Notes: generated from the sequence alone by a model not told the origin. A stretch of 64,000 nt of DNA from an uncultured Bacteroidota bacterium (GCA_902533035.1 CACAKI010000001.1:33917-97916), one strand, 5' to 3'; counted from the stretch's first letter, positions 10,851 through 60,053 are shown. Numbers and translations: made by a program.

Positions 10851-13418
10851 ATGATTACTTTTGTTGTACATAAAAAAAAACCTATGAATAAAGTAATTTC
10901 TATTTTTCTATTTTTTGCTTTTATAAATATTTCTTCTTCAGATGCGCAAGGCATTTTCAAAAAATGGAAAAAGAATAAACAAGAAAAAACCGAAGAAAAA
11001 ACTCCAGAAAATCCTAATTCAATAAATACAAAAATAAAAGATTGTATTAAACATGAAGGATTGTTTAATGTATATCAATCTAAAAAGGATGGGAAGTCAT
11101 TTATTGAAATTGACATTTCTCAATTAAACAATGAATATATTTATTTTAGTTATGTGGAGGATGGTGTGGTTGATTCATGGAATTTCCGAGGAGGTTTTAG
11201 GGGGTCAAAGATCATAAAGATTAAAAAGTTTTTTAATAAAATTGACTTTATTGTTGAAAATAATAAATATTATTTTGACCCAAATAGCCCTTTGTTTAAA
11301 TCTTCAAAAGCAAATATTAATGAGCCTCTGATTATAAGTGAAGAAATCATCGCAACTAATGATGATAGTACTAAATTTTTAATTAACGCAGATAAAATAT
11401 TTTTAACAGAAGCTTTCCAGCAAGTAAAATCTTCTTATCCTCCAGGTTACAAAGGTTTTAAATTGGGATCTTTAAGTAAAGAGAAAACTAGATACAGTTC
11501 TATTAAAAATTATCCTGAAAATACAGATGTGGTTGTGGATTATGTTTATGAAACTAGATACCCAAGTCAAAGAGGAAGTTCTGCAGTAACTGATTCCAGA
11601 GTAGTTACAATTAAAATTCAACATAGTTTAATTCGTGTTCCAGAGAATAATTTTAAGCCTAGATGGGATGATCCTAGAGTGGGTTATTTTCACACTCAAA
11701 CAAATGATATGACTAGTATTGATCAAATAAACTATAGAGATATGATACATAGGTGGAATCTTGAAAAAAAAGACCCTTCAAAAAAAATATCAGATCCGAT
11801 AAAACCAATTACTTGGTGGATTGAAAACACAACTCCATATGAATTTAGAGATATTATAAAGGAAGGAGTTGAATCGTGGAATTTAGCTTTTGAATCTGCT
11901 GGGTTTTCAAATGCAATTCAAGTAAAAATACAACCTGATAGTGCAGATTGGGATGCTGGTGATATTCGTTATAATGTTTTGAGATGGACTTCTTCACCTA
12001 ATCCTCCTTTTGGGGGTTATGGGCCATCTTTTGTGAATCCAAAAACTGGTGAAATAATAGGAGCTGACATCATGCTAGAGTGGGTTTATGTAACTAATAG
12101 AATTAAGTACGATTTTTTATATGATCATGATGAGGGTAGTTCTTTTTTAAATTCTAATAATTATTGCCTTGCATCTCATGAAACTCAAAAACAAAATATA
12201 TTTGGGGCGAATTGTATTGATTTTTTAAACCTGGGAGATGAAATGCAAAAAGAAATGGTAAAACAATCTTTATATAGATTAGTTTTACATGAGGTGGGCC
12301 ATACTTTAGGTTTGAATCATAACTTTAAGGGAAGCACATTGTTAACTAATGAGGAAGTTAAAAATAAGGAAATTGTTGCTCAAAAAGGTTTATGTTCTTC
12401 TGTTATGGAGTATCCTGCTATAAATATTGCAATTGATCCGGAAAATCAAGGCCTTTTTTATGATATAACACCTGGTCCATATGATTATTGGGCTATTCAA
12501 TTTGGGTACTCTACTTTTCAAGAAAATGATAAAGAAGAATTGAATGCCATACTTTCAAAATCTATTTATCCATCATTGTCTTTTGCTAATGATGCAGATG
12601 ACATGCGTTACCCTGGGAAAGGGATAGATCCTAATGCTATGATTAACGATTTAACAAGTAATCCAGTTGAACATTCAATAGAAAAAATGGAACTGATAAA
12701 TTCTATGATTCCTGATTTAAAAAACAGATACAGTTCTAATGGGGAGTCTTATGAAAGATTAAAAAGATCTTATTATTCTTTGATTGGCAATTATTTCACT
12801 TGTTTAGATATTGTTTCTCGACAAATAGGTGGCGTTTATGTGGATAGATCTTTTATTGGTCAAAATACTAATCAAAAACCTTTTACTGTAGTTCCGGCTG
12901 ATTTACAAAAAAAAGCTATAGAAACTCTTTCTAAATATGCTTTTAGTGATGAAAAAATTATTGTTTTTGAAGATTTAGTACCATATCTACAATCTCAAAG
13001 AAGGGGATTTAATTTTAGATCATCTGGTGAAGATCCAAAAATTCTTTCATTAGTATTATACGGACAAAAAAGAGTGCTTTCTCAGTTATTACATCCAAAT
13101 GTTTTGACACGAATCAGTAATAGTGAATTTTATGGTAACAATTATGACGTAAATAATTTTTTAAAAGACTTAACTAATTCTGTATTTGCATCCGATATCT
13201 CAAAATCTGTTAGTTCATTAAGGATGAATTTACAAGTAGAGTATGTAAAAAAATTAATAACTATTTTAGAAAAATCATCTTATGATAATTTATCTAAAGC
13301 TGCAGTTTATAATAATTTAATTTGGTTAGAGAAAAATTTAAGTACTCGAAATGGAAATAGAAAATCTATTGAGCATAGAAAATATTTACTACATTTAATT
13401 AAAAATATAGATCAATAG
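10851..13418 (+). CDS. Secreted zinc metalloprotease (large Bacteroidota DUF5117/DUF4953-like type)
   Basis: HExxH site LHEVGHTLGLNHNF with a downstream SSVMEYP. The signal peptide MNKVISIFLFFAFINISSSDAQG suggests the true start may be the ATG at 10884. Confidence 0.8.
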   Translation: MITFVVHKKKPMNKVISIFLFFAFINISSSDAQGIFKKWKKNKQEKTEEKTPENPNSINTKIKDCIKHEGLFNVYQSKKDGKSFIEIDISQLNNEYIYFSYVEDGVVDSWNFRGGFRGSKIIKIKKFFNKIDFIVENNKYYFDPNSPLFKSSKANINEPLIISEEIIATNDDSTKFLINADKIFLTEAFQQVKSSYPPGYKGFKLGSLSKEKTRYSSIKNYPENTDVVVDYVYETRYPSQRGSSAVTDSRVVTIKIQHSLIRVPENNFKPRWDDPRVGYFHTQTNDMTSIDQINYRDMIHRWNLEKKDPSKKISDPIKPITWWIENTTPYEFRDIIKEGVESWNLAFESAGFSNAIQVKIQPDSADWDAGDIRYNVLRWTSSPNPPFGGYGPSFVNPKTGEIIGADIMLEWVYVTNRIKYDFLYDHDEGSSFLNSNNYCLASHETQKQNIFGANCIDFLNLGDEMQKEMVKQSLYRLVLHEVGHTLGLNHNFKGSTLLTNEEVKNKEIVAQKGLCSSVMEYPAINIAIDPENQGLFYDITPGPYDYWAIQFGYSTFQENDKEELNAILSKSIYPSLSFANDADDMRYPGKGIDPNAMINDLTSNPVEHSIEKMELINSMIPDLKNRYSSNGESYERLKRSYYSLIGNYFTCLDIVSRQIGGVYVDRSFIGQNTNQKPFTVVPADLQKKAIETLSKYAFSDEKIIVFEDLVPYLQSQRRGFNFRSSGEDPKILSLVLYGQKRVLSQLLHPNVLTRISNSEFYGNNYDVNNFLKDLTNSVFASDISKSVSSLRMNLQVEYVKKLITILEKSSYDNLSKAAVYNNLIWLEKNLSTRNGNRKSIEHRKYLLHLIKNIDQ

Positions 13419-14207
13419 ATGAGGTTAATTGTTTTTATTTTTATTTTTATTTTTTTTCAATTTTCTTTTTCACAGGAGTATTCACCTCAAAGGTATCATA
13501 ATCCAGAAAATAAAATAGACACAAAAGACAGGGATAATAATAGATTGAAAAATTTGTTTAATTCAATTTTATTAAAAAGGAGTAAAACAAAAGATGATTG
13601 CAATTGTCCAGATGATAAATCCTCCTTGTATTATTCAAAATCTAAGTTTAATCTTAAATATAGTATTACTAAAACATTTGTAAATATAGTCCGTTGTAAA
13701 AAACCAGAATTTGGAAACTTAGCTATGCATATTAATTTTCCTGAGTATTATTATACTTGGGGAGCAATTTATGATTATGATCCTTGGCAGTTAGCTGATT
13801 TAAGTATTGGGATGCAGTATTTTGCTGAAAATACTTCGTATGATTTATGGCTTTCTGCGCCAATTTTCAATGAAGATGTTCAACGATATGGATTGAGAGC
13901 TGGTATCAGTTTTTTTCCTGTAGGTCATACAGGATTAGTTCGGCCTTATATAGGTACATCTTTAGGTTTAGAAGTAAAATATCTTTATGAGAATATATTG
14001 GAAAATAATATTTATGTAAATAATTGGTATTCAGAATATTATTTTTTAGCGAGACTACATGCTGGAATCCAATATATGTTTCGTTGTAATTTAACTTATA
14101 AATTTGATGTGTCTTATGCAGCAGGTACTTATATTGATAGAGACGCTAATCAATTCCCTCATTACAGACCGTGGGTTGTTTTCCAATCTTTTGGTATAAG
14201 ATTTTAA
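13419..14207 (+). CDS. Hypothetical outer-membrane beta-barrel-like protein
   Basis: Signal peptide MRLIVFIFIFIFFQFSFSQ, alternating aromatic and hydrophobic stretches, and a C-terminal ...FQSFGIRF ending in Phe. The ATG directly follows the protease TAG. Confidence 0.5.
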   Translation: MRLIVFIFIFIFFQFSFSQEYSPQRYHNPENKIDTKDRDNNRLKNLFNSILLKRSKTKDDCNCPDDKSSLYYSKSKFNLKYSITKTFVNIVRCKKPEFGNLAMHINFPEYYYTWGAIYDYDPWQLADLSIGMQYFAENTSYDLWLSAPIFNEDVQRYGLRAGISFFPVGHTGLVRPYIGTSLGLEVKYLYENILENNIYVNNWYSEYYFLARLHAGIQYMFRCNLTYKFDVSYAAGTYIDRDANQFPHYRPWVVFQSFGIRF

Positions 14208-16003
14208 ATATGGAATCTATATTTTTTATTTTGTATCAAATCTAAAGCAATTTTTCGTCGGATTTCTTTGATATTATATGTAGGCTTTTTTGTGAAACGA
14301 TTTAAAGTTTTTAAAAATAACTTTTTTTCTATTGCAGATAAAGGCAGAGCTTGAATTATTTCAAAGCCTGCTTGTGAACATGTATTTATAGTTTTATATA
14401 GATAATTTTTGCTCATTAAAGTTTGAATTTCACAACTTTCCTTTCCATGTTTCAAGATTAGTTTTTCAGATCGCAATAAACTAGATTCAGCCATATATAA
14501 ATCAATGATCATGTCCGCTAAATTTAACATAATCTCTTGTTCATTTTCTAATTCTTTTTTCAAAACCTGAGTGGACTTTCCAAGTAATATTAAAATTAAT
14601 TTTTTAATATTTTTGATATATATGTTTTCTTTTCCTAAAATTCCCAAAACCTTTTCTTTCTTTAAAAAAGAAAAAATATTTGTTAGTTCTTTGCCTGCTT
14701 TTTTTGCATGAGTAAATAGATCAATTTCTTTTTTCAATGCTTTTTTAATAAACATGCCAACGATTAACATTCTATTGATTTCATTAGTTCCTTCATATAT
14801 TCTAGATATTCGAGCATCTCTATATGCAGGTTCTACTATTGACTCTGCAGAAAAACCCATCCCGCCAAATATCTGAATTGCTTCATCTGAAACCTCTTTT
14901 ATAACCTCTGATCCATGTACTTTTATTATAGAACATTCAATTGAATATTCTATAATACCGTTTTTTTTAGCTTCACATGTATCTAATCCTTCTTTTTCTA
15001 ATTTTCCAGTATTTTGTTCAATATTATAACCCGTTCTATATAATCCTGATATAGTTGTGAATATTGATGTTGCCATTATAGCTAATTTTTCTTGTATCGC
15101 TCCAAAATCAGAAATAGATTTCCCAAATTGTTTTCTTTCAATGGCATATTTTATACATTCGTTTATTACTTTAATGGCTGCTGTTCCAGTAGCTGCTCCT
15201 AATTTTATTCTTCCTGCATTTAATGCATTTAAAGCGATTTTAAAACCCTCTTCTCTAGATCCTAGCATTTGTGATTTTGGAATGCTAGTTTTTTCATAAA
15301 ACACTTGTCTAGTAGAAGAAGATCGGAGCCCTAGTTTATTTTCTTCTTCTCCTAAAGTAATTCCATTTGCTTTTGACTTTTCTAATACAAATCCAGTAAT
15401 ATTTTTATCATTTTCTATTCTTCCAAATACGATGAATACTTCAGCAAAACCTGCATTACTGATCCATATTTTTTGACCTGTAATTTCATAATTCTCACCA
15501 TTATCACTTAATACTGCAATAGTTTTTCCTGAATTTGCATCAGATCCCGCATTTGGTTCAGTTAAATTATAACATGACATCCATTCACCTGAGCAAATTT
15601 TAGGTAAGAATTTATTTTTCACCTCTTCGTTACCATAAAAAATAATAGGTAATGTTCCGATACCTGTATGAGCTCCATATGCTGTTGCTATAGATCCAGA
15701 ATAACTACTAATTTCACCACATATTAACATGGATATATTTAATCCCATTCCTAGTCCACCATATTTTTCAGGAACAGTAATTCCCAATAAGCCCATTTCA
15801 CCAATTTTTCTCATGATGTCTTCTGTGAGCTTATAGTTTTTTTTCTCAAACTCAAAAATATTAGGTTTAATTTCTTTTTCATTAAATTCTTTTGTCGCCT
15901 CTAACATCATTTTGGCTTCTTCATTAAATTCTTCCAAAATGAATATTTCATCAGGTGATGTTTCAGCGATTAAAAAACCTCCTCCTTTTAAATTTTCTTT
16001 CAT
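14204..16003 (-). CDS. Acyl-CoA dehydrogenase (long ~600-aa form)
   Basis: ACAD motifs CYNLTEPNAGSD, GQKIWISNAG and QIFGGMGF, plus a C-terminal extension domain. Confidence 0.9.
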   Translation of the reverse strand: MKENLKGGGFLIAETSPDEIFILEEFNEEAKMMLEATKEFNEKEIKPNIFEFEKKNYKLTEDIMRKIGEMGLLGITVPEKYGGLGMGLNISMLICGEISSYSGSIATAYGAHTGIGTLPIIFYGNEEVKNKFLPKICSGEWMSCYNLTEPNAGSDANSGKTIAVLSDNGENYEITGQKIWISNAGFAEVFIVFGRIENDKNITGFVLEKSKANGITLGEEENKLGLRSSSTRQVFYEKTSIPKSQMLGSREEGFKIALNALNAGRIKLGAATGTAAIKVINECIKYAIERKQFGKSISDFGAIQEKLAIMATSIFTTISGLYRTGYNIEQNTGKLEKEGLDTCEAKKNGIIEYSIECSIIKVHGSEVIKEVSDEAIQIFGGMGFSAESIVEPAYRDARISRIYEGTNEINRMLIVGMFIKKALKKEIDLFTHAKKAGKELTNIFSFLKKEKVLGILGKENIYIKNIKKLILILLGKSTQVLKKELENEQEIMLNLADMIIDLYMAESSLLRSEKLILKHGKESCEIQTLMSKNYLYKTINTCSQAGFEIIQALPLSAIEKKLFLKTLNRFTKKPTYNIKEIRRKIALDLIQNKKYRFHI

Positions 16004-16007
16004 ATAC

Positions 16008-17186
16008 TTAATTTAACAATTCAAATATTCCAGCCGCTCCTTGACCAGTTCCTACACACATCGTTACCATACCTTTTTTTTGTTTTCTTCTTCTCATTTC
16101 ATTTAACAATTGTACTGTTAATTTTGCTCCGGTACATCCTAGTGGATGACCTAAAGCAATAGCCCCACCATTTACGTTAATAATACTAGGGTTGAGATTC
16201 CCTTCCTTTATTACTGCTATTGATTGACAGGCAAATGCTTCATTTAGTTCTATTAAATCTATATCATTTAATGATAAACTTGCTTGTTTTAATGCTTTTG
16301 GAATAGCTTCAATGGGCCCAATACCCATGTGTTTAGGCTCTACTCCACTAACAGCATAAGTAATCATTTTAGCGATTGGTTTTATATTTAATTTTTTTAC
16401 CATTTTTGCTGACATCAACATCACAAAAGCTGCTCCATCTGAAGTTTGAGATGAATTCCCAGCAGTTACTGTTCCATTTTTAGAGAAGACAGGCTTTAAT
16501 TTCGATAATTTCTCAATAGTTGTGTCTTTTCTTGGTCCTTCATCTTCTTTTACAGAGTAGACTCTTTCCTGTTTTTTTTCATTTTCATCTAAATAAGTTT
16601 CTGTAACATCGTAAGGAATAATATCGTTTTTAAATAGACCTTCTTCAATTGCATTTACTGCTTTCATATTCGATTGATAAGCAAATTCATCTTGATCTTC
16701 TCTGCTAATGTTATATTTTTTTACAATTGCTTCAGCAGTAGTTCCCATACCCCAGTACCAATCAGGGTTTTTCTCAGCCACTTTATAATTTGGAACAATT
16801 CTCCAACCTCCAAATGGTATTGGTGACATAGTTTCCACTCCTCCTGCTAATATGCAATCTGCCATCCCTGCATGAATTTTACTAGTAGCAATTGCAATAG
16901 TTTCTAATCCAGAGGAACAAAATCTATTCACAGTCATTCCAGGAACTTTTACTGTATTTAATCCAATTAGAGAAATGAGGCGACCAATATTCAATCCTTG
17001 CTCTGCCTCTGGAGTTGCATTACCAACAATGACATCATCAATTAATTCTTTGTCTAACTGAGGCATTTGTTGCATCATCCTGTTGATTAATTGACTTGCT
17101 AAGTCATCAGGCCTTGTAAATCTCAAAGCTCCTCTTTTTGATTTTCCAACAGCTGTTCTGTATGCTTGTACTATATAAACTTCCAT
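16008..17186 (-). CDS. Acetyl-CoA C-acyltransferase (3-ketoacyl-CoA thiolase)
   Basis: Active-site regions NRFCSSGLE, NGGAIALGHPLGCTG and MCVGTGQG. Confidence 0.95.
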   Translation of the reverse strand: MEVYIVQAYRTAVGKSKRGALRFTRPDDLASQLINRMMQQMPQLDKELIDDVIVGNATPEAEQGLNIGRLISLIGLNTVKVPGMTVNRFCSSGLETIAIATSKIHAGMADCILAGGVETMSPIPFGGWRIVPNYKVAEKNPDWYWGMGTTAEAIVKKYNISREDQDEFAYQSNMKAVNAIEEGLFKNDIIPYDVTETYLDENEKKQERVYSVKEDEGPRKDTTIEKLSKLKPVFSKNGTVTAGNSSQTSDGAAFVMLMSAKMVKKLNIKPIAKMITYAVSGVEPKHMGIGPIEAIPKALKQASLSLNDIDLIELNEAFACQSIAVIKEGNLNPSIINVNGGAIALGHPLGCTGAKLTVQLLNEMRRRKQKKGMVTMCVGTGQGAAGIFELLN

Positions 17187-17189
17187 TTT

Positions 17190-19577
17190 TTAATTTCTTA
17201 AAGGTTTTCCTTTTTCTAACATATATTTAATTCTTTCAAGAGTTTTTGCTTCTCCACATAAAGATAAAAATGCTTCTCTTTCTAGGTCTAAAAGGTATTG
17301 TTCAGACACATATGTAGGTGATGATAAATTTCCGCCACATAATACATGAGCTAATTTTTCAGACATTAATTTTTCATGTTCTGTTATATAATTCCCTTCT
17401 TTAAAGCTATCTGCCCCAACTAAAAACATTCCTAAGGCTTGATTTCCTAAAACCTTTATATCTTTTCTTTTTATCGGATTGGTGTATCCTAGATTATCTA
17501 AAAGGATCACTTTTTCTTTAGCATCTTGAATTAATTTTTCTGTATTTATACTGATATTATCTATTCCTTTTCTTAAATAACCCAACTCAAATGCTTCTTC
17601 TCCAGAAGTACTTACTTTTGCTTGTCCAATGTTTAGGAAGTACTCTTTGAGTCTAGGTAATTCAATATCTCCTTCGTAATAAGCATCAGAAGCTCTAAGT
17701 GCCATTTCTTTAGTGCCTCCGCCACCTGGAATCAATCCTACGCCGAGTTCCACAAGTCCCATATAAGTTTCAGCTGCACATTGCACAGCATCTGCATGTA
17801 GTGTAAACTCACACCCTCCTCCAAAAGTAAAACCGTGTGGAGCTACTACAATAGGAATTTTAGAATATCTTATTAGCATAGATGTATCTTGGAATGTTTT
17901 AATTGCTAAATTTAATTTCTCATATTCTTGTTCTACAGCTAAAGTAAATATCATACTTATATCAGCTCCTGCTGAAAAATGAGTGCCCTGATTTCCTATA
18001 ACCAGTCCTCGATATTTTTCTTCTGCTATTTCAATGCCTTTTTGTACACCAACGATTACATCTTCTCCAATACTATTCATTTTTGTATGAAACTCAATAT
18101 TTGCAACACCATCACCAATATCAAATATTGAAACTCCATCATTTTTCCAAATGATTGAATGAGATCGTAGATTGTGTAAATTAATGAATTTATTGAGTGT
18201 AGGTATATTTTCTTGTTTTTCTTCTGAAATTTCATAATATTTTTTTTCACCATCTTCTATAGTGTAAAATGAAACATTTGAATCAAGCTTTTTCACCCAA
18301 TCAGGTATAGGAAGGTTTTCCTGTTTTATTAAATTAATTCCTTTTTGTACACCAATCGCATCCCAAGTTTCAAAAGGCCCTATTTCCCAACCAAATCCTG
18401 CACACATAGCAGCATCTATTTTATAGATTTCATTTGATATTTCAGGGACTCTATTTGAAACATATGAAAACATTACAGCAAACATTTTTCTATAGAATAA
18501 AGACGCTTTGTCATTACCTTCAAGTAGGATATTTAATCTTTCTTTTAGGTTGTTATTTTTTTTGGCTTTTCCAATTGTTTCAAATCTAACTTTCTTTTTT
18601 TCTTCATATGAAAAAGTATTTAAATCAAGTGATAATATTTTTCGTTTTCCTTTTTTATCTCTACTTTTTTTATAAAAACCTTGTTTTGTTTTATCGCCTA
18701 GCCATTTTTTTCTTAACATTTCATCTATAAAATTAGGTAGTTTAAAAACATTTCTATTTTCATCATTGGGACAATTTTCGTAAACACCTTTTGCTACATT
18801 ATACAGTGTGTCAAGACCTACTAAGTCACACGTTCTGAATGTTGCTGATTTAGGTCTTCCAATAATTGGACCTGTAAGTGAATCAATTTCTTCTATAGAA
18901 AGTTGTAGTTCTTTAATAATTTTAAATAGAGCCGCTATACCCGCTATTCCAATTCTATTAGCTATGAATGCAGGGGTGTCTTTACAGAGAACAGTCTTTT
19001 TTCCTAAAAACTTTTCCCCGTAGGACATTAAAAATTTTATTAAGCTTTCTTCTGTTTTTTTTGACGGAATAATTTCAAGTAGTTTTAAATATCTAGGAGG
19101 GTTAAAAAAATGTGTTCCGCAAAAATTTTTACAAAAATCTTCACTTCGACCTTCTATCATTTGATTAATTGGTATTCCAGAAGTATTAGAGCTAATAATA
19201 GATCCTTCTTTTCTGTATTTTTCTATTTTTTCGAACAGTTCTTTTTTTATTTCAAGATTTTCAATAATTACTTCAATAATCCAATCAGAGTCATTGACTT
19301 TTTCTAAATCATCTGTTAAATTTCCTGTTTTAATTCTATTAGTGAATTTTTTAGCATAGATTGGAGAGGGTTTTGATTTTAAAGTGTTATTTAAAGAATC
19401 ATTTACAATTTTATTTCTTAGTTGTTTATTTTTTATATCTTTTTCTGCATCTTTATTTAATATATCTAACAACAAAACCTCAACTCCAATATTAGCAAAA
19501 TGACATGCGATTCTAGAACCCATAATTCCAGAACCAATTACAGCTACTTTATTAATTTTTCTATTCATTTTTTTCAA
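17190..19577 (-). CDS. Bifunctional 3-hydroxyacyl-CoA dehydrogenase / enoyl-CoA hydratase, with the dehydrogenase domain N-terminal
   Basis: N-terminal Rossmann motif VAVIGSGIMGSRIA and HFFNPP. The C-terminal crotonase fold shows GTHFSAGADI and GGGCEF. Confidence 0.9.
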   Translation of the reverse strand: MKKMNRKINKVAVIGSGIMGSRIACHFANIGVEVLLLDILNKDAEKDIKNKQLRNKIVNDSLNNTLKSKPSPIYAKKFTNRIKTGNLTDDLEKVNDSDWIIEVIIENLEIKKELFEKIEKYRKEGSIISSNTSGIPINQMIEGRSEDFCKNFCGTHFFNPPRYLKLLEIIPSKKTEESLIKFLMSYGEKFLGKKTVLCKDTPAFIANRIGIAGIAALFKIIKELQLSIEEIDSLTGPIIGRPKSATFRTCDLVGLDTLYNVAKGVYENCPNDENRNVFKLPNFIDEMLRKKWLGDKTKQGFYKKSRDKKGKRKILSLDLNTFSYEEKKKVRFETIGKAKKNNNLKERLNILLEGNDKASLFYRKMFAVMFSYVSNRVPEISNEIYKIDAAMCAGFGWEIGPFETWDAIGVQKGINLIKQENLPIPDWVKKLDSNVSFYTIEDGEKKYYEISEEKQENIPTLNKFINLHNLRSHSIIWKNDGVSIFDIGDGVANIEFHTKMNSIGEDVIVGVQKGIEIAEEKYRGLVIGNQGTHFSAGADISMIFTLAVEQEYEKLNLAIKTFQDTSMLIRYSKIPIVVAPHGFTFGGGCEFTLHADAVQCAAETYMGLVELGVGLIPGGGGTKEMALRASDAYYEGDIELPRLKEYFLNIGQAKVSTSGEEAFELGYLRKGIDNISINTEKLIQDAKEKVILLDNLGYTNPIKRKDIKVLGNQALGMFLVGADSFKEGNYITEHEKLMSEKLAHVLCGGNLSSPTYVSEQYLLDLEREAFLSLCGEAKTLERIKYMLEKGKPLRN

Positions 19578-21351
19578 AAATTTTATTGTATAGATTAGAG
19601 TATTTTTCTAAAATATTTCTTCTTTTTAATTTTAATGTTGCAGTTAATTCTCCACCATCAGGTGACCATGCCTTTCCAATTAACACAAACTTTTTAATTC
19701 TTTCAAATTGACTGAAGTTTTCATTGTATTTTGTTATTTCATTTTCAAATACTTCTAATACTTTTGGGTTTCTAATTATTTGTTCAGAGTCAGAGTATGA
19801 AATATTGTTATTTTTACACCAATCTTCTAAATATAAAAAATCTGGGACTATGAATGCGGCGGGATGTTTTTGGTTTTCACCAATTACCATTAATTGTTCT
19901 ATAAAAATAGATTGTTTGAATTTGTTTTCCATTACTTGAGGGGCTATATACTTTCCTCCAGAAGTTTTGAAGATCTCTTTTTTTCTGTCAGTTATTTTTA
20001 AATATTTTCCCTCAATTAAGGTTCCAATATCTCCCGTGTGAAACCAACCGTCTTTGTTAATCACTTTTCTTGTTTCGTCTGGCTTATTGTAATAACCTAA
20101 CATGACATTAGGTCCTTTTACTAAAATTTCCCCTTCTCCTTCTCTCATTCCTTCTTCGTGATTAATTTTTATTTTAACCCCCTGAATTACCGGCCCAACA
20201 GTTCCATAACAAGAATTTTTAGAGTTTGCGAAATTAACTGAAACAACAGGTGAGGTTTCAGTTAGGCCATAACCTTCACTAACAGGCATTTTTGCTGCTG
20301 TAAAAACTCTCGCAAGCCTTTCTTGTAGTGCTGCGGATCCGGAAATAATCATTCTTATTCTTCCACCAACTGCTTCTCTCCATTTATTAAAGATTAATTT
20401 GTTTGCAATTTTTAATTGTAATTCGTACCAAAATCCATTTTTTCCATTATACTCATGTTTTAGCCCTAGGTTTACCGCCCAAAAAAATAACTTCTTTTTA
20501 AATCCTTCTAACGATTCTCCTTTTGTCATGATTTTGTCATATACTTTTTCTAATAATCTAGGAACTGTAGGCATTAATGTTGGTTTAATTATTTTTAGAT
20601 CATCTCCTATTGTCTCAATACTTCCGTAATAAATAGAAACGCCTTTAAACATATAGAAATATTCAACCATTCTTTCAAATACGTGAGATAGAGGTAGGAA
20701 GCTAATTGCTCTATCATTTTTACCCCAATCTAAAGCATCCCTTAAAGCTGAAATTTGGCTGATTATATTGGAATGTGTTATCATCACTCCCTTTGGGTTT
20801 CCAGTGGTTCCAGAAGTATATATTAAAGTAAAAAGATCATCATCAGTTATGCTTTTTTGAATTGTTGCCATCTTTTCGTTTTGAGGTTTTGTGACCCCTA
20901 ATTCTATTAAATCTTCCCAATTTTTTACGTTTTCTATTTTTTCAAAAGAGTATATGAATTGTAATGTGGGAATTTCATTTTCAAGACCTTCTATTTTTTT
21001 AAATATTTCTTCGTTTTCTACAAAAATTAATTTTGCTTCAGAATCATTGATAATATACTTGTAGTCTGATCTAGTTATATTTGAATACAATGGTGTATTT
21101 ATTCCACCAATTTTATTAATACCCATATCACAAAGGCTCCATTCAGTTCTATTATTTGAAATAATACATACTTTATCACCTTTAGAAATTCCGAGATTTA
21201 ACAATCCGCTACCAATTGCATCAGATGTTTGAATATATTCACTACAACTATATTTTTTCCAAGTACCATTTTTCCGGCCAGCAATCATATCTTCTTTATC
21301 AAAAAGATTAGCATATCTTCTATCAAGTTCATAAATTTTTAAATCTTCCAT
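19561..21351 (-). CDS. Long-chain fatty-acid-CoA ligase (AMP-forming)
   Basis: AMP-binding motif YTSGTTGNPKGV, plus EGYGLTE, TGDIG and KTSGGKYIAP. There is a 17-nt overlap with the next gene. Confidence 0.9.
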   Translation of the reverse strand: MEDLKIYELDRRYANLFDKEDMIAGRKNGTWKKYSCSEYIQTSDAIGSGLLNLGISKGDKVCIISNNRTEWSLCDMGINKIGGINTPLYSNITRSDYKYIINDSEAKLIFVENEEIFKKIEGLENEIPTLQFIYSFEKIENVKNWEDLIELGVTKPQNEKMATIQKSITDDDLFTLIYTSGTTGNPKGVMITHSNIISQISALRDALDWGKNDRAISFLPLSHVFERMVEYFYMFKGVSIYYGSIETIGDDLKIIKPTLMPTVPRLLEKVYDKIMTKGESLEGFKKKLFFWAVNLGLKHEYNGKNGFWYELQLKIANKLIFNKWREAVGGRIRMIISGSAALQERLARVFTAAKMPVSEGYGLTETSPVVSVNFANSKNSCYGTVGPVIQGVKIKINHEEGMREGEGEILVKGPNVMLGYYNKPDETRKVINKDGWFHTGDIGTLIEGKYLKITDRKKEIFKTSGGKYIAPQVMENKFKQSIFIEQLMVIGENQKHPAAFIVPDFLYLEDWCKNNNISYSDSEQIIRNPKVLEVFENEITKYNENFSQFERIKKFVLIGKAWSPDGGELTATLKLKRRNILEKYSNLYNKIFEKNE

Positions 21352-28332: not shown

Positions 28333-29490
28333 TTAAACATATTTTTTTATATCATCTATAGATATTGTTTTATCTGTCAATATAATTAACCTTTCAATTA
28401 CATTTTTTAATTGTCGTATATTACCTGACCATTTTTTTTCTTTTAATAAACTAATTGCTTCTTGTTCGATATATTTTTTTTTAATTCCTTGTTCGTTACA
28501 AATTTCATTAGTAAAATAATCAATTAAAATGGGTATATCTTCTTTTCTTTGTCTTAAAGGTGGAACTTGTATTTTGATTACACTTAATCTATGATATAAG
28601 TCTTCTCTAAATTTTTTTTCTTGTATTTCTTTTTCAAGGTTTTTGTTTGTTGCAGCGATTACTCTTACATCAATTTCTATTTCTTTTTCTCCGCCAACTC
28701 TGCTAATTTTATTTTCTTGTAATGCTCTCAGTACTTTAGCTTGAGCAGACAAGCTCATGTCTCCAATTTCATCTAAAAAAATAGTCCCTCCATTTGCAAT
28801 TTCAAACTTTCCTTTTTTTTGTTTATTGGCCGATGTAAAAGATCCTTTCTCATGTCCAAATAATTCACTTTCAATTAATTCTGATGGTATTGCAGCACAG
28901 TTGACTTCAATTATTGGTATTTTAAATCTGGGGCTTTTTTCATGAATAGCATGTGCTACTAATTCTTTTCCTGTTCCATTTTCTCCTGTGATTAAAACTC
29001 TGCTGTTGGTAGGTGCAACTTTTTCAATCATTGCTTCAATCTGTATGAGTCCCTCAGATTTCCCAATCATTTGATATTTCTTTTTAACTTTCTTTTTTAA
29101 TATTTTATTTTCATGATTTAAATTTTTATTATTTAATCCATTTCTGATAGTTGTCAATAATCTATTTAAGTCAGGTGGTTTACTTATGTAATCATACGCT
29201 CCATTTTTTATGCATTCTACGGCGGTTTCTAAATCTCCGTGACCTGATATCATAATAAATGGAAGATGGTAGTCTAATTTTTTGATTTTTTTTAATACCT
29301 CAAGGCCATCTAATTTAGGCATTTTGATATCACATAATGCTAAATCATAATTATTTGCAAAAATTTTTTTAACTCCTTCTTCTCCGTCAGATGCTTCATC
29401 TACGATATAATTTTTATTTTCATCAATTAGAATATTTTTTAATACATTTCTAATTGACTTTTCATCTTCTATAATAATGATTCTTGCCAT
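28333..29490 (-). CDS. Sigma-54-dependent response regulator (REC + AAA+ activator) with no C-terminal HTH DNA-binding domain
   Basis: REC domain with the phospho-acceptor context LALCDIKMP. AAA+ module has Walker A GENGTGKE, Walker B GTIFLDEIG, a GSFTSA loop in place of GAFTGA, RVIAATN and FREDLYHRL. The protein ends ~30 aa after sensor II (WSGNIRQLKNVIERL). Confidence 0.85.
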   Translation of the reverse strand: MARIIIIEDEKSIRNVLKNILIDENKNYIVDEASDGEEGVKKIFANNYDLALCDIKMPKLDGLEVLKKIKKLDYHLPFIMISGHGDLETAVECIKNGAYDYISKPPDLNRLLTTIRNGLNNKNLNHENKILKKKVKKKYQMIGKSEGLIQIEAMIEKVAPTNSRVLITGENGTGKELVAHAIHEKSPRFKIPIIEVNCAAIPSELIESELFGHEKGSFTSANKQKKGKFEIANGGTIFLDEIGDMSLSAQAKVLRALQENKISRVGGEKEIEIDVRVIAATNKNLEKEIQEKKFREDLYHRLSVIKIQVPPLRQRKEDIPILIDYFTNEICNEQGIKKKYIEQEAISLLKEKKWSGNIRQLKNVIERLIILTDKTISIDDIKKYV

Positions 29491-30392
29491 GGTATAAGTT
29501 TATTTAAAATGTTTGAAAACACTCCTTCATTTAGAGAGAGTTTAGTGGTGTATATATTTTTTATTTTATTATCCATCAAGAAATTTATTAAAATAATTGT
29601 AATTATTATATTTTCCGCTCTCATTTTTGTAAGGCCAGCTATTTTTGTTCGTTCATAAACAGTACTATTTAAAATTAAAGGGGCAATAGTAGTTTTGTAA
29701 TTTTCAATATTCAATTTATGATAATTAGTATCATATTTTTGGTTTAGTTCAATATTCGTTATGCAGTTAAAAGATCCAGAAGAGCCTATTAAATTTTTAA
29801 TACTATGTTTCTTTAGTAAAAGTATAAGTTCTTGTAATTCTTTTTTGAAAAATAAATAAATTTCTTCTTCTTCTTTCTCTTTTAATCGTTTGGAGGGGTT
29901 AAATTTCTGTATCAATAGTTGACTTCCAAATGAATAACTTTTACTAAAAATAGATTTCTTATTTTTTGTGATTATAAATTCAGTACTTGCTCCTCCAATA
30001 TCTACAATAACAAAGTTTCTTAGTTCTTTGATATTATTTGTTATGCCATCAAATATTAGTTTAGCTTCATTGTCTCCTGAAATAACATTTATAATTAAGT
30101 CAGTTTCCTTTTTGCATGTTGCTATAAAATCAGTTTTATTTAAGGCATTCCTTAAAGATGCGGTTGCTATTAGGTATATTTTTTCACAATTTAATTTTTT
30201 GCATATTTTTTTAAATTTTTTAATCTTAAAAATAGATTCAGAAACGGTTTTTTTTTGAATAATGTTTTTTTTTGTTCCTTTTCGTATACCAACATACTCT
30301 TCTTTTGAATATAAAGTTTTTTTTGAGTCAGTACAAGACACTAGTAAATTGAAAGTATTACTTCCAATATCAATAATTCCAATTTTTGACAT
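29469..30392 (-). CDS. Short Ppx/GppA-family phosphatase (ASKHA fold only, ~307 aa)
   Basis: N-terminal IDIGSNTFNLLV, plus VDIGGASTEF and SGDNEAKL motifs. It starts 1 nt after dnaJ and overlaps the activator gene by 22 nt. Confidence 0.7.
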   Translation of the reverse strand: MSKIGIIDIGSNTFNLLVSCTDSKKTLYSKEEYVGIRKGTKKNIIQKKTVSESIFKIKKFKKICKKLNCEKIYLIATASLRNALNKTDFIATCKKETDLIINVISGDNEAKLIFDGITNNIKELRNFVIVDIGGASTEFIITKNKKSIFSKSYSFGSQLLIQKFNPSKRLKEKEEEEIYLFFKKELQELILLLKKHSIKNLIGSSGSFNCITNIELNQKYDTNYHKLNIENYKTTIAPLILNSTVYERTKIAGLTKMRAENIIITIILINFLMDNKIKNIYTTKLSLNEGVFSNILNKLIPWQESLL

Positions 30393-30393
30393 T

Positions 30394-31503
30394 TTAATTG
30401 AACATTTCTTTTATCTTTTCAAAAAAAGACTTTTCTGATTTGTCAATTTTTGGAATAAATTCCTCGCAGTTTTTATTTTCTTCAAAAAATTTTCTTTGCT
30501 TGGGATTTACTTTTTTTGGAGTCCAGACATTCACATGTACTAAAAGGTCTCCTTTTTCTCTAGAGTATTCGCTAATATTAGGAATGCCTTTTGATTGTAA
30601 TCTGAGTATCTTTCCATTTTGAATACCTGAAGGAATATTTATCTCTACTTTTCCCTCAATTGTTGGAATTTGTTTTTTTGTTCCTAAAATTGCTTCAGAA
30701 ATATTTATGTATAAGTTATAGTGAATATTTACTCCATCTCTTATTAATTCTTCATGTTTTTGTTCTTCAATTAAAACTAGCAAATCACCATTTACACCTT
30801 CGAAGGGAGCTTCATTTCCTTCGTTTGGTATCTTTAACTGCATTCCTTCAGACACACCAGGTGGGATTTCAATTTCTGTAAAAGTTTCCTTTCGTATCAT
30901 GCCATTCTCATCTGCCTCAATTGGTTTTTTAGTAATTATTTTTCCTTTTCCAGAACATTGAGGGCAAGTAGAGCTAGTTTGCATTTGTCCTAGGATTGTG
31001 TTAGTAATTCTGGTTACTTGGCCTAATCCATTACATGCGTTGCAATTTGAAAACTCAATGTCTTTTGCTTGAATTAATTTTTTTACCTTTATTTTTTTCG
31101 TAGTACCCTCTGATATTTCTTGAAGGTTAAGTTTTATTCTAATTCTTAAATTAGATCCTCTTAATATGCGAGATCTACTGGAGCTTCTTCCTCCAAATCC
31201 TCCAAATCCTCCAAAAATATCTCCAAAGCTTTCAAAAATATCTTCCATATTCATACCTCCCCCAAATCCACTATTCCCACTTACTCCTTGATGTCCAAAT
31301 TGGTCATATCTACTTCTTTTTTCAGAGTTGCTTAATATACTATATGCTTCAGCAGCTTCTTTAAACTTCTCTTCTGCTTCTTTGTTTCCAGGGTTTTTAT
31401 CAGGATGGAATTTTATAGCTAATTTTCTATATGCTTTTTTTATGTCTTGGGAACTTGCATTTTTTTCTAAACCAAGAACCTCGTAATAATCTCTTTTATT
31501 CAT
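30394..31503 (-). CDS. dnaJ: Molecular chaperone DnaJ
   Basis: J domain DYYEVLG...KFHPDKN, a G/F-rich linker, and Cys-rich zinc-finger repeats ([16 protein letters not shown]). Confidence 0.97.
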
Positions 31504-31986
31504 TTATTTTCCAATTATAACTTTTGTAAATCTTATAATTTTTTCATTTAACAAGTATCCAGCTTCAATTTCTTCTACAATTTTTCCTTTTAACTTTTTT
31601 TCTTCGGTGGGAATTTGACTGATTGCTTCATGTTGATTGACATCAAATTCTTCTCCTTTAGACACGGAAATTTTTTTTAATCCTTCTCTTTGTAAGGCGT
31701 CAGATAATTTTTGATTTATTAATAAAAAACCGTCTCCTTTTTTCTGCTCTTCTCCGGCTTTTTGAGCTCTGTTAAAATCATCTAAAATTGGCAGTATTTT
31801 TGATATAATTAATTCTTTTCCATATTCAATGGACACTGATTTTTCTTTAATAGTTCTTTTTCTATAGTTTTCCCATTCTGCTAATAAACGCAGATATTTT
31901 TCATTACTTTCAGAAACTTTTTGTTCTAGTTCTTCTATTTTTTTCAGTTCATTATTTTTTTTAACTGATTTTCTTTTTTTTGTCAT
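31504..31986 (-). CDS. grpE: Nucleotide exchange factor GrpE
   Basis: 160 aa. Coiled-coil N-terminus, WENYRKR motif, C-terminal beta domain. The stop abuts the dnaJ start. Confidence 0.9.
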   Translation of the reverse strand: MTKKRKSVKKNNELKKIEELEQKVSESNEKYLRLLAEWENYRKRTIKEKSVSIEYGKELIISKILPILDDFNRAQKAGEEQKKGDGFLLINQKLSDALQREGLKKISVSKGEEFDVNQHEAISQIPTEEKKLKGKIVEEIEAGYLLNEKIIRFTKVIIGK

Positions 31987-32012
31987 GTGTTTATTGTGTT
32001 TATTGTATGAAT

Positions 32013-32028
32013 AGCAAAATCTTTGCCA
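32013..32028 (-). promoter_or_regulatory. Candidate sigma-54 (RpoN) -24/-12 promoter TGGCAaagattTTGCT upstream of grpE
   Basis: The minus strand reads T-GG-CA-N6-TT-GC-T, with GG and GC spaced exactly as in the consensus TGGCAC-N5-TTGCW. The only consensus mismatch is C6 to A. The predicted +1 is near 32002, 16 nt upstream of the grpE ATG. Confidence 0.5.
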
Positions 32029-32039
32029 AAATAAATATT

Positions 32040-32054
32040 ATGACAAGTTGTCAT
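32040..32054. promoter_or_regulatory. Perfect palindrome ATGACAA-g-TTGTCAT just upstream of the candidate -24 element
   Basis: 7+1+7 inverted repeat read directly, centred about 45 nt upstream of the predicted grpE transcription start and 7 nt downstream of the murA stop. Confidence 0.3.
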
Positions 32055-32060
32055 GATAGA

Positions 32061-33362
32061 TTAATTTCTTTTAATATTTGCGCCAATTTTTTGTAATCTT
32101 TCTACAATTTTTTCATATCCTCTATCTATTTGGTTGATATTATAAATAACACTTTTCCCTTTAGCAGAAAGCGCTGCTATTAATAGTGCTATTCCTGCTC
32201 TTATGTCAGGAGAGCTCATAGTGGTGCCTTTTAAAGAATATTTTCGATTGATTCCCACAACGGTTGCTCTATGAGGATCACATAGTATAATTTTTGCTCC
32301 CATATCTATTAACTTATCTACAAAAAAGAGTCTACTTTCAAACATTTTTTGATGAATTAAAATACTCCCTTTCGCTTGAGTTGCTAAAACTAAAATTATG
32401 CTAATTAAATCTGGCGTGAATCCTGGCCATGGCGCATCAGATATAGTTAAAATAGAGCCGTTCATAAACGTTTTAATTTCGTGTGTTTTTTGTTTTTTTA
32501 TAATAATATCGTCATCCTTTACCTTTAATTTTACACCTAGTTTTTGAAAAGTATTTAATATAATTCCAAGATTATCAATCGAACAATTTTTTATTGTTAG
32601 GTTAGATTGGGTCATTACAGCTAGACCAATCCAACTGCCAATTTCAATCATGTCAGGTAGTATCTTATGAGATGTTCCATGTAATTTTTTTACTCCTGTT
32701 ATTTTTATTAGATTGGTGCCTATTCCACTTATTTTTGCTCCCATTTTATTCAGCATTTTACATAATTGCTGAATGTATGGCTCGCATGCAGCGTTATATA
32801 TTTCCGTTATGCCTTTTGCTAATGTTGCTGCCATAATAATATTTGCTGTTGCAGTCACTGATGCTTCTTCTAACAATATTTTTTTTCCAATTAAACTTTT
32901 TCCTATAAGTTGATAAATGTTATTTTTTTTGATTTTTATTTTAGCTCCTAGATTTTCTAATCCTTTAAAATGAGTGTCTAGTGGCCTTCTTCCAATTTTA
33001 TCCCCCCCAGGTGTTAATACATTTACTTGACCTTCTCTAGCAATTAGCGGTCCCATAATCATAATAGAACCTCTTATTTTGGAACTAAGTTTTTTAAATT
33101 TTTCTTTTTTGACATAATTTTTATCTATTTTCTTAGCTTCAAAAATGAAATTATTGGCTTTTTTCCTTGTTACTTTTACTCCTAATATTTTTAATAATTT
33201 TATCAAATTCAGGACATCCGTTATTTCAGGTACATTTTTTAGTTCGATTTTTTCAGTTGTTAATAAACATGCTGAAATAATTTGTAAGGCTTCATTTTTT
33301 GATCCTTGTGGAGATATTGTTCCTGATAAACTTTTTCCCCCTATGATTTCAAAATTACTCAT
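32061..33362 (-). CDS. murA: UDP-N-acetylglucosamine 1-carboxyvinyltransferase
   Basis: 433 aa. Motifs GSKNEALQI, PGGDKIGRRPLD and RAGIALLIAAL. Confidence 0.95.
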   Translation of the reverse strand: MSNFEIIGGKSLSGTISPQGSKNEALQIISACLLTTEKIELKNVPEITDVLNLIKLLKILGVKVTRKKANNFIFEAKKIDKNYVKKEKFKKLSSKIRGSIMIMGPLIAREGQVNVLTPGGDKIGRRPLDTHFKGLENLGAKIKIKKNNIYQLIGKSLIGKKILLEEASVTATANIIMAATLAKGITEIYNAACEPYIQQLCKMLNKMGAKISGIGTNLIKITGVKKLHGTSHKILPDMIEIGSWIGLAVMTQSNLTIKNCSIDNLGIILNTFQKLGVKLKVKDDDIIIKKQKTHEIKTFMNGSILTISDAPWPGFTPDLISIILVLATQAKGSILIHQKMFESRLFFVDKLIDMGAKIILCDPHRATVVGINRKYSLKGTTMSSPDIRAGIALLIAALSAKGKSVIYNINQIDRGYEKIVERLQKIGANIKRN

Positions 33363-58622: not shown

Positions 58623-60053
58623 TTAAAATTTTAAGATGTAATTAAAATGAATTTTTGAATTATTGATTTCTATGTTTTTATTGTATTTTGGAATAGCATA
58701 GTTTATTAAAAATATATCATTTTTCATATCTATTCCTATTCCTAATCCAAATGATTCTAATTTCACATTTAAATCATAAAGTTTACCAAAATCATAAAAA
58801 AATGAAATATAAGACTTATTGTTAAAAAAGTATTTATTTTCCAGGTTTATAATACTTAATGATTTGCTAAAAAAACTATTTTCTAAAAACCCTCTAATTT
58901 GATTTATTCCACCGATTCCTATTTTTTCGTTTTCCAAGATGTTTTCTCCGATTAAAAATTTATTATTTGAATTTAGGTAAAAATTATTATTTTCAAAAAG
59001 AGGTAATTTGAATTCAAGATTTAATCCTATTTGTTGCCGTATATTTTTCTCATTTGTTATCTTATTTATCCCAATCCTATATTCTTTTGAAATTTTATAG
59101 TTGATTCTTTTTAAGAAATTAATTTTTTGGTGAGTCCAATTTAATAATATTAAATTTTTTCTATAATCTTGTGTTGAATTGTTGATGGAATTATTTAAGA
59201 TGTTAGATCTTTTGTTTAAATAACCTAATTTTAAAAAATAAGCTTCTTTTTTAAATTCTAAACTAGATATAAATTCTTTATTTATATATGAGTTATTATA
59301 TTGTAAAATATTGAATTTAGTGTTTAGGAAAAAAGTAGAATTTAAAAAAAAAGGAAAATTAAAATTTACTGAAAGCTCTTGTGAACTTGCAGTCATTTTA
59401 TTCCATTTTATATTGATAGACTCCCACATATTTAAAGCGTTCGAAAGATTTAGATTTACTTTTCCATATAAAGAGGTGGTTTCTTGATTGTTATTCAGGC
59501 CTAAGAACCCGTCTATTGAGTTATTGTGTGTTTTTTCTAAATAAAGAAATAATATAGTTTTCTCTGGGTTAAATAAAATACTATTGTTTTTATATTCTTT
59601 TAAAAAAATATTTTGTTGTAATTTTTCTGAGATTAAATCTATTTTTTTTTGCTTATATCTTTCGTTTTTTTTAATGTTCAGAAATCTACTTATTAAGTAT
59701 TTTGGGAACTTATTATATCCCTTTAAAGCTATACTGTCTATTTTAGTTAAATTTCCTTTTTTTACAAAAATCTTTCCATATATTTTTTTAGTTTTTATTG
59801 AATCATAACGAAATTCAATAGTTGAAAATGGGTAGCCATTGTTTTCTAGTTTTTTTGCAATGATGTAAAAAATAGAATCTATTTCATTTTTTTTTAATGC
59901 AGTTTTAGTTTTGGTTGTGAATTTATTTGTGTTAGTAATAATCCAGGTATAATTCTTATTATTTAAAATAGTATCTGTTTTATTGTTTTTTTCAATTGAA
60001 AAACACATCAATGAGTAAAGAAAGAATAAAAAAAATAGACTTTTTAAATACAT
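58623..60053 (-). CDS. Outer-membrane beta-barrel protein with POTRA-like N-terminal modules (Omp85 superfamily, ShlB/FhaC-like)
   Basis: Signal peptide MYLKSLFFLFFLYSLMCFS. POTRA-like segment I.SIALKGYNKFPKYLISRFLNIKKNERY. IDGFLGL motif. Alternating beta pattern ending ...HFNYILKF. Confidence 0.45.
   Translation of the reverse strand: MYLKSLFFLFFLYSLMCFSIEKNNKTDTILNNKNYTWIITNTNKFTTKTKTALKKNEIDSIFYIIAKKLENNGYPFSTIEFRYDSIKTKKIYGKIFVKKGNLTKIDSIALKGYNKFPKYLISRFLNIKKNERYKQKKIDLISEKLQQNIFLKEYKNNSILFNPEKTILFLYLEKTHNNSIDGFLGLNNNQETTSLYGKVNLNLSNALNMWESINIKWNKMTASSQELSVNFNFPFFLNSTFFLNTKFNILQYNNSYINKEFISSLEFKKEAYFLKLGYLNKRSNILNNSINNSTQDYRKNLILLNWTHQKINFLKRINYKISKEYRIGINKITNEKNIRQQIGLNLEFKLPLFENNNFYLNSNNKFLIGENILENEKIGIGGINQIRGFLENSFFSKSLSIINLENKYFFNNKSYISFFYDFGKLYDLNVKLESFGLGIGIDMKNDIFLINYAIPKYNKNIEINNSKIHFNYILKF

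Follow-up and report, generated by a model that had tools for sequence, protein, structure and literature searches.

The 74-nt gap between murA and grpE on the minus strand of the DNA analysed here, a stretch of 64,000 nucleotides from an uncultured Bacteroidota bacterium (GCA_902533035.1, CACAKI010000001.1:33917-97916; hereafter the window), very probably holds a sigma-54 (RpoN) promoter of the Bacteroidota type that drives grpE-dnaJ, as judged from motif, position and conservation. Upstream of its -24 box lies an inverted repeat, the dyad, which we propose as a heat-shock-specific regulator site that most likely binds a dimeric regulator. A wider proposal, which we regard as evenly balanced, has three parts: that a dyad 12 (±1) nt before the -24 box is a hitherto undescribed mark of heat-shock promoters throughout the phylum Bacteroidota, the counterpart on sigma-54 promoters of CIRCE and HAIR; that its putative dimeric reader gives specificity to an activator without DNA-binding domain encoded downstream of grpE-dnaJ; and that the module has been captured by Bacteroidota phages, some of them very large, for their own Hsp70 and Hsp20 genes. 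The promoter region has the following features:

32013..32029, minus strand: sigma-54 -24/-12 element TTGGCAAAGATTTTGCT (motif match, unique in the window, conserved in relatives)
32041..32053, minus strand: inverted repeat core TGACAACTTGTCA (TGACA-N3-TGTCA), with the extended form ATGACAACTTGTCAT at 32054-32040 (inverted-repeat scan and conservation)
32001..32002, minus strand: predicted transcription start (by analogy with the SM4 promoters of Flavobacterium psychrophilum described below), giving a 5′ untranslated region of about 15 nt

On the minus strand, positions 32028..32013 read TGGCAAAGATTTTGCT, which has one mismatch to the RpoN consensus TGGCAC-N5-TTGCW. The GG (32027-32026) and the GC (32015-32014) have 10 nt between them, which is the spacing of the consensus, and the element lies 27 nt ahead of the grpE ATG (31986), the gap being bounded on its other side by the murA stop (32061). 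Element, spacing, single mismatch and gap length are as the first-pass annotation of this DNA had read them, and a scan bears out its statement that TGGCA-N6-TTGC occurs only once within the 64-kb window. Its argument that a chance match would be unlikely in AT-rich DNA does not hold, however: 0.41 matches are expected per window by chance, and at least one was found in 32 of 100 dinucleotide-preserving shuffles. The significance of the element therefore derives from its position and conservation and not from base composition. The Bacteroidetes sigma-A box TAnnTTTG is absent from the minus strand of the gap, the nearest ones being located inside dnaJ and at the start of murA. An Rfam scan of the whole window gave no match and therefore no RNA thermometer or leader.

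Conservation was followed in two sets of loci. The close relatives are seven metagenome loci with a GrpE 71-83% identical to that of the window; they came from a metagenome scan, since the scan of the genome collection with the GrpE alignment had yielded, among the matches listed, only relatives with a GrpE at most 49% identical. The phylum-wide set comprises 114 grpE loci (L001-L114), likewise among the matches listed, with 83 unique upstream regions; the lineages named in the record titles are Flavobacteriales, Bacteroidales, Cytophagales, Chitinophagaceae, Saprospiraceae and Sphingobacterium. The GrpE homologues are mostly from metagenome assemblies and a few from Tara Oceans data, three of them on contigs of 1.56-1.67 Mb, and the GC content of the lineage is low (27-32%).

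When the gap is aligned with its seven counterparts (8 sequences, mean column identity 75%), the columns without variation are concentrated in TGACA, TGTCA, TTGGCA and TTTG. GG and TTG are kept in all seven close relatives and GC in six. Across the phylum, TGGCA-N6-TTG is found shortly upstream of grpE in 87 of the 114 Bacteroidota loci, and a weighted consensus score of at least 12.5 is reached by 25% of the grpE upstream regions as compared to 1% of segments picked at random from these loci. GGCA are the best-conserved bases of the block in the 83 unique regions, where the base following TTG is A (40%), C (31%) or T (29%) and never G; the canonical C at -12 is thus dispensable in Bacteroidota. 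By these alignments the element is a clear phylogenetic footprint with flanks drifting around it; the comparison of orthologous grpE upstream regions, which the first-pass annotation had suggested as a check, thus speaks for the promoter.

Sigma-54 promoters in front of chaperone genes are already known from this phylum. Guerin et al. (2021) mapped 5′ ends in F. psychrophilum and described a motif, SM4, which consists of typical sigma-54 -24/-12 elements and precedes groES-groEL, lon, dnaK, grpE-dnaJ, htpG, skp and clpB, among others (PMC9723704). The SM4 promoters of grpE-dnaJ, dnaK, groES-EL, lon and htpG belong to the co-expression cluster B254, and mutagenesis of SM4 at remF lowered promoter activity, confirming that the motif contributes to transcription (PMC9723704). 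In the rows of Table S2 that could be consulted, the -12 regions are CTGA (groES), TTGA (skp), TTGC (asmA) and TTGG (710561), TTGT being also seen, and in the rows for groES, skp and asmA the 5′ end was mapped 14 nt past the G of the -12 motif (PMC9723704); among the heat-shock promoters of this table only that of groES was compared at the sequence level. A survey with position-specific scoring matrices published in PLoS One in 2025 found that in Bacteroidota sigma-54 promoters are enriched before GroEL, GroES, IbpA, GrpE, DnaJ and DnaK, the enrichment being strongest in Flavobacteriia (PMC12316311).

The window and F. psychrophilum have in common the grpE-dnaJ operon, the TTGGCA-N6-TTG(N) layout and the short leader, and in the groES row also a TGTCA half-site (PMC9723704). 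They differ in that the -12 of the window is a perfect GC and in that no ABC-transporter genes intervene between dnaJ and the activator gene, so that ppx and the activator gene stand in a tight string. Because the SM4 5′ ends of F. psychrophilum typically lie 14 nt past the G of the -12 TTG, analogy predicts that transcription in the window begins at 32001-32002, with a leader of about 15 nt, in agreement with the earlier estimate of a start near 32002; relative to this start, the GG would occupy about -26/-25 and the G of TTGC about -14. The call of a sigma-54 promoter before grpE-dnaJ in the first-pass annotation has in its favour the footprint in the seven relatives, the phylum-wide homologues and the F. 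psychrophilum orthologue with its mapped transcription start (PMC9723704). The claim made along with it, that a sigma-54-controlled grpE-dnaJ operon is undescribed in Flavobacteriia, fails because such promoters had been published in 2021 (PMC9723704) and again in 2025 (PMC12316311). What the window adds to the published pattern of sigma-54-driven Bacteroidota chaperone genes is one lineage.

The dyad core is 13 bp long and lies 12 nt upstream of TGGCA, its centre being about 46 nt before the predicted start; it belongs to a longer inverted repeat with arms of 11 nt (32036-32046 and 32048-32058), which are 1 nt apart. The half-sites TGACA and TGTCA are invariant in the seven close relatives. 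Of the 83 unique grpE upstream regions of the phylum-wide set, 71 carry TGnCA-N3-TGnC; the spacing is 12 nt in 57 of them, 11 nt in 7 and 13 nt in 7. No further copy of the composite of dyad and sigma-54 element was found on either strand of the 114 loci, nor in the window. That the spacing is fixed points to a stereospecific contact with either the holoenzyme or the ATPase, which would favour a factor needed for, or gating, activation over a plain repressor. At the groES promoter of F. psychrophilum a TGTCA half-site lies 11 nt ahead of TTGGCA, a spacing equal to that at grpE, the available sequence ending before the position of the other half-site, and nothing dyad-like is seen in the available sequences of the six non-heat-shock SM4 promoters remF, dxs, asmA, 710561, skp and Rfp36 (PMC9723704). 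The accessible portions of that paper and of its supplements contain no mention of a palindrome or inverted repeat. Within the searchable literature the dyad was not found, nor was a regulator or operator for the sigma-54 heat-shock response of Bacteroidota described. The inverted-repeat scan also indicated that the start of grpE, ATGACAA (31980-31986), exactly repeats the left half-site of the dyad; this heptanucleotide is kept in the close relatives and may merely reflect the codons for Met-Thr-Lys.

Conserved inverted repeats that are common to chaperone-gene promoters, where they overlap the sigma-70 promoter, are characteristic of the CIRCE/HrcA and HAIR/HspR systems. The dyad is like these in being a conserved inverted repeat at chaperone promoters and unlike them in its sequence, in preceding a sigma-54 promoter by a fixed spacing of 12 nt, and in that its putative reader may be an activator. 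A CIRCE/HrcA operator (TTAGCACTC-N9-GAGTGCTAA) was rejected, the window containing no match with up to three mismatches. The first-pass annotation was therefore right that the gap has no CIRCE-type element; the absence of an operator that this implied is contradicted by the conserved dyad.

The composite is also found in viral sequences. IMG/VR was scanned for TGACA-N3-TGTCA-Nx-TGGCA-N6-TTG, with x = 17 as spacing control, and yielded 61 loci with x = 12 (L115-L175), 21 with x = 11, 15 with x = 13 and 2 with x = 17, counts from which the share of phage sigma-54 promoters without dyad is not readable, the query itself having included the dyad. In nearly all matches with x = 12 the next open reading frame (ORF) begins 26-84 nt downstream, and the 47 distinct downstream proteins include 18 of the HSP20 family, 11 of the HSP70 family, 8 with a UVR motif and 2 of the sigma-70 family. 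On account of these spacing counts and downstream products the composite can be considered a chaperone-gene signature with tightly constrained spacing that is also carried by phages. Among the neighbours of the viral modules are genes with matches to phage families (DNA polymerase, RNase H, RNA ligase/tail-fibre attachment and DprA-like proteins).

The relatives of one such Hsp70 (that of L139), which were sought for cellular dnaK promoters, are located in contigs of 108-817 kb. In three loci (L214, L216 and L217) the Hsp70 gene preceded by the module stands beside genes for a T4-type RNA ligase, an endolysin-like protein (Amidase_2) and UvdE, and among many ORFs without family. Because of the T4-type RNA ligase and the endolysin-like genes, the contigs are probably very large phages and not cells, and they are possibly very large phages of Bacteroidota. 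Further IMG/VR loci (L178-L213) also carry the module of dyad plus sigma-54 element. In the 135-kb contig IMGVR_UViG_3300012920_000022 there are four copies (L127, L137, L160 and L162) with an identical TGGCACGATTTTTG core, which precede genes without family match near phage DNA polymerase and RNase H genes; it looks like this phage uses the host heat-shock promoter type for several genes of its own.

The genes on both sides of the gap are:

32061..33362, minus strand: murA, the upstream neighbour bounding the gap (TIGR01072 and NF006873 above cutoffs)
31504..31986, minus strand: grpE, 160 amino acids (aa) (NCBIfam GrpE models, homologues)
30394..31503, minus strand: dnaJ, 369 aa, abutting grpE (NF008035, 342 bits with a cutoff of 338)
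29469..30392, minus strand: Ppx/GppA-family phosphatase (ppx), 307 aa, 1 nt past dnaJ (PF02541; TIGR03706 below cutoff)
28333..29490, minus strand: sigma-54 activator with receiver (REC) and AAA+ domains, 385 aa, overlapping ppx by 22 nt (Pfam Response_reg, Sigma54_activat, AAA_lid_14)

NCBIfam and Pfam confirm the gene identities given earlier, including that of the REC-AAA+ activator as last gene, and the ORF coordinates confirm the packing from grpE to the activator gene. The string DUF4290-murA-grpE-dnaJ-ppx-activator is common to the seven close-relative loci, in which the tight packing is kept. Across the phylum (L001-L114) an order on one strand recurs, namely uvrD/pcrA-like helicase, DUF4290, murA, grpE, dnaJ, ABC ATPase, ABC-2 permease, (ppx) and activator. 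The lineage of the window is without the two ABC transporter genes, the loss of which has brought ppx and the activator gene up against dnaJ; L088 is without ppx, too. Near ppx and the activator gene neither a terminator-like site on the minus strand nor a TAnnTTTG box was seen, and it is plausible from this arrangement that both genes are on the grpE-dnaJ transcript. Clustering of the ORFs of the 114 loci revealed no conserved DNA-binding gene near grpE, the only recurring genes being those for the uvrD/pcrA-like helicase, DUF4290, MurA, the ABC transporter, Ppx and the activator. Nor is there a second activator gene near grpE in any of the 114 loci; the extra members of the "activator" cluster are unrelated receiver proteins.

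The activator has a sigma-54 interaction domain (PF00158, 3e-71) followed by AAA_lid_14, and a receiver domain (PF00072, 2.4e-31) with residue 54 in LALCDIKMP as acceptor Asp. Its orthologues, which are 386-406 aa long and 59-68% identical and thus better conserved than GrpE, all stop just past the lid when complete, and a G[AS]FTSA loop is found in 25 of them; the string GAFTSA was not found in the searchable literature. The best solved homologues over REC plus AAA+ are the Aquifex NtrC-family regulators 4l4u and 1ny5 (E about 1e-95), the latter being A. aeolicus NtrC1 and the former, as we believe, A. aeolicus NtrC4. In 37 of the 114 loci grpE-dnaJ is followed downstream by an activator orthologue of the same orientation, which has no sigma-54 motif of its own. 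The gap before it is often 8-107 nt and in some lineages 1-2 kb.

Activators with REC and AAA+ but without helix-turn-helix (HTH) domain are known from Helicobacter pylori (FlgR) and Chlamydia (CtcC), where the holoenzyme is presumably contacted by them from solution; these organisms have a single activator each, so that promoter choice is no issue. In contrast, Bacteroidota have several activators (three in F. psychrophilum; PMC9723704), and the loop of the one considered here is G[AS]FTSA.

From these data the following mechanism can be envisaged. Sigma-54 RNA polymerase would bind TTGGCA-N6-TTGC as a closed complex, which an AAA+ activator would remodel, transcription then starting near 32001-32002. 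The transcript would span grpE-dnaJ; in this lineage, which is marine and streamlined, it probably includes ppx and the activator gene as well. The dyad would be the heat-shock-specific part, binding a putative dimeric factor on which activation depends or by which it is gated. Most likely the REC-AAA+ protein encoded at the end of the operon is the ATPase of the promoter, acting once it has been phosphorylated by a putative kinase. As it has no DNA-binding domain, it would engage the holoenzyme from solution or via the dyad-bound factor. And since its gene would be co-transcribed, induction would reinforce itself, which makes the positive feedback loop of the first-pass annotation plausible on the gene order.

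Several points weigh against this interpretation. To the chance expectation of the motif given above it should be added that the six-frame translation of the 64-kb window contains no RpoN box, rpoN thus not being in the window. In one close relative (L083) the dinucleotide at -12 is GT and not GC, which departs from the proteobacterial rule and is normal for the phylum. A classical enhancer is not usually as close to its promoter as the dyad, which is centred near -46; the cellular evidence for the dyad outside grpE consists of the one half-site at groES, and the relatives of the L139 Hsp70 turned out to be in the large, probably viral contigs. With respect to the activator, Pfam finds no C-terminal HTH (HTH_8), the protein stopping at the AAA lid, and its loop is GSFTSA in place of GAFTGA, F and T being retained and the second G replaced by S; neither feature had been noticed in the first-pass annotation. 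Because of this loop and the lack of a DNA-binding domain, what links the activator to the promoter is synteny. Finally, there may be an internal promoter inside dnaJ for ppx and the activator gene.

Some of these points would also fit a different assignment, in which the sigma-54 promoter is real and the activator of the operon is not the cognate one: the dyad would be a promoter-proximal enhancer for another, HTH-bearing activator, ppx and the activator gene would merely be adjacent or have their own promoter, and there would be no feedback. In its favour, an activator without DNA-binding domain cannot itself read the dyad; PF00158 proteins number three in F. psychrophilum, where the sigma-54 promoters fall into several co-expression clusters (PMC9723704); and in some lineages the activator gene is 1-2 kb away from the preceding gene. 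Difficult to reconcile with it are the same-strand synteny across the phylum with its often short gaps and without separate sigma-54 motif, the absence of a second activator gene near grpE from every locus, and the dyad itself, which as a lone site at about -46 is atypical of an enhancer. We consider this assignment unlikely.

Very improbable is a reading in which the conserved block is the sigma-A promoter type of Bacteroidetes, its -33 TTG falling within the dyad and its -7 TAnnTTTG coinciding in part with N6-TTG, and in which the TGnCA repeats would be half-sites of a heat-shock repressor and sigma-54 would have no role. It can point to the Flavobacteriaceae versions of the block, which are TGGCAGTACTTTTGCC and contain TACTTTTG, to L083, which carries TAATTTTG overlapping the -24 box, and to the distance of about 29 nt between the two TTG motifs. 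It does not explain, however, why GGCA are the best-conserved bases; the 8-mer ending at the TTG of the window is AGATTTTG; and F. psychrophilum transcripts start, in the Table S2 rows consulted, 14 nt and not about 5 nt past the G of TTG, grpE-dnaJ and groES being classed there as sigma-54-dependent (PMC9723704). The lack of TAnnTTTG in the gap and these mapped starts led us to reject it.

That the element is a chance match or an E. coli-type sigma-70 promoter (TTGGCA, 16 nt, TACAAT), for which the 0.41 chance matches per window and a score of 10/12 at 32029..32002 in a sigma-70 scan can be quoted, is hardly conceivable, since the -24/-12 bases are kept in relatives (with GT at -12 in L083) and TACAAT is not, on which ground the TTGGCA-16-TACAAT reading was rejected, since regional sigma-70-like matches are not enriched (29 versus 24.2 in shuffles), and since this consensus is not used by the sigma-A of Bacteroidetes (PMC9723704).

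With the promoter type itself published, what is apparently undescribed, as far as the searchable literature goes, are the dyad, the G[AS]FTSA activator without DNA-binding domain beside grpE-dnaJ, and the phage copies, of which no mention was found in the 2025 study, a statistical survey (PMC12316311). A short dyad whose distance to the promoter is fixed, together with one conserved candidate ATPase, is a concrete handle on heat-shock regulation in these bacteria. Judging by their copies of the module, phages seem to tap into the stress circuit of their host, which bears on the interplay of infection and proteostasis in gut and marine Bacteroidota.

Elsewhere in the window, two long ORFs have no NCBIfam match at E <= 1e-20 (10851-13418 on the plus strand, 855 aa, and 58623-60053 on the minus strand, 476 aa), and positions 14204-21351 on the minus strand hold a run of genes for fatty-acid beta-oxidation, encoding an acyl-CoA ligase, a FadB-like dehydrogenase/crotonase, a thiolase and a FadE-like acyl-CoA dehydrogenase.

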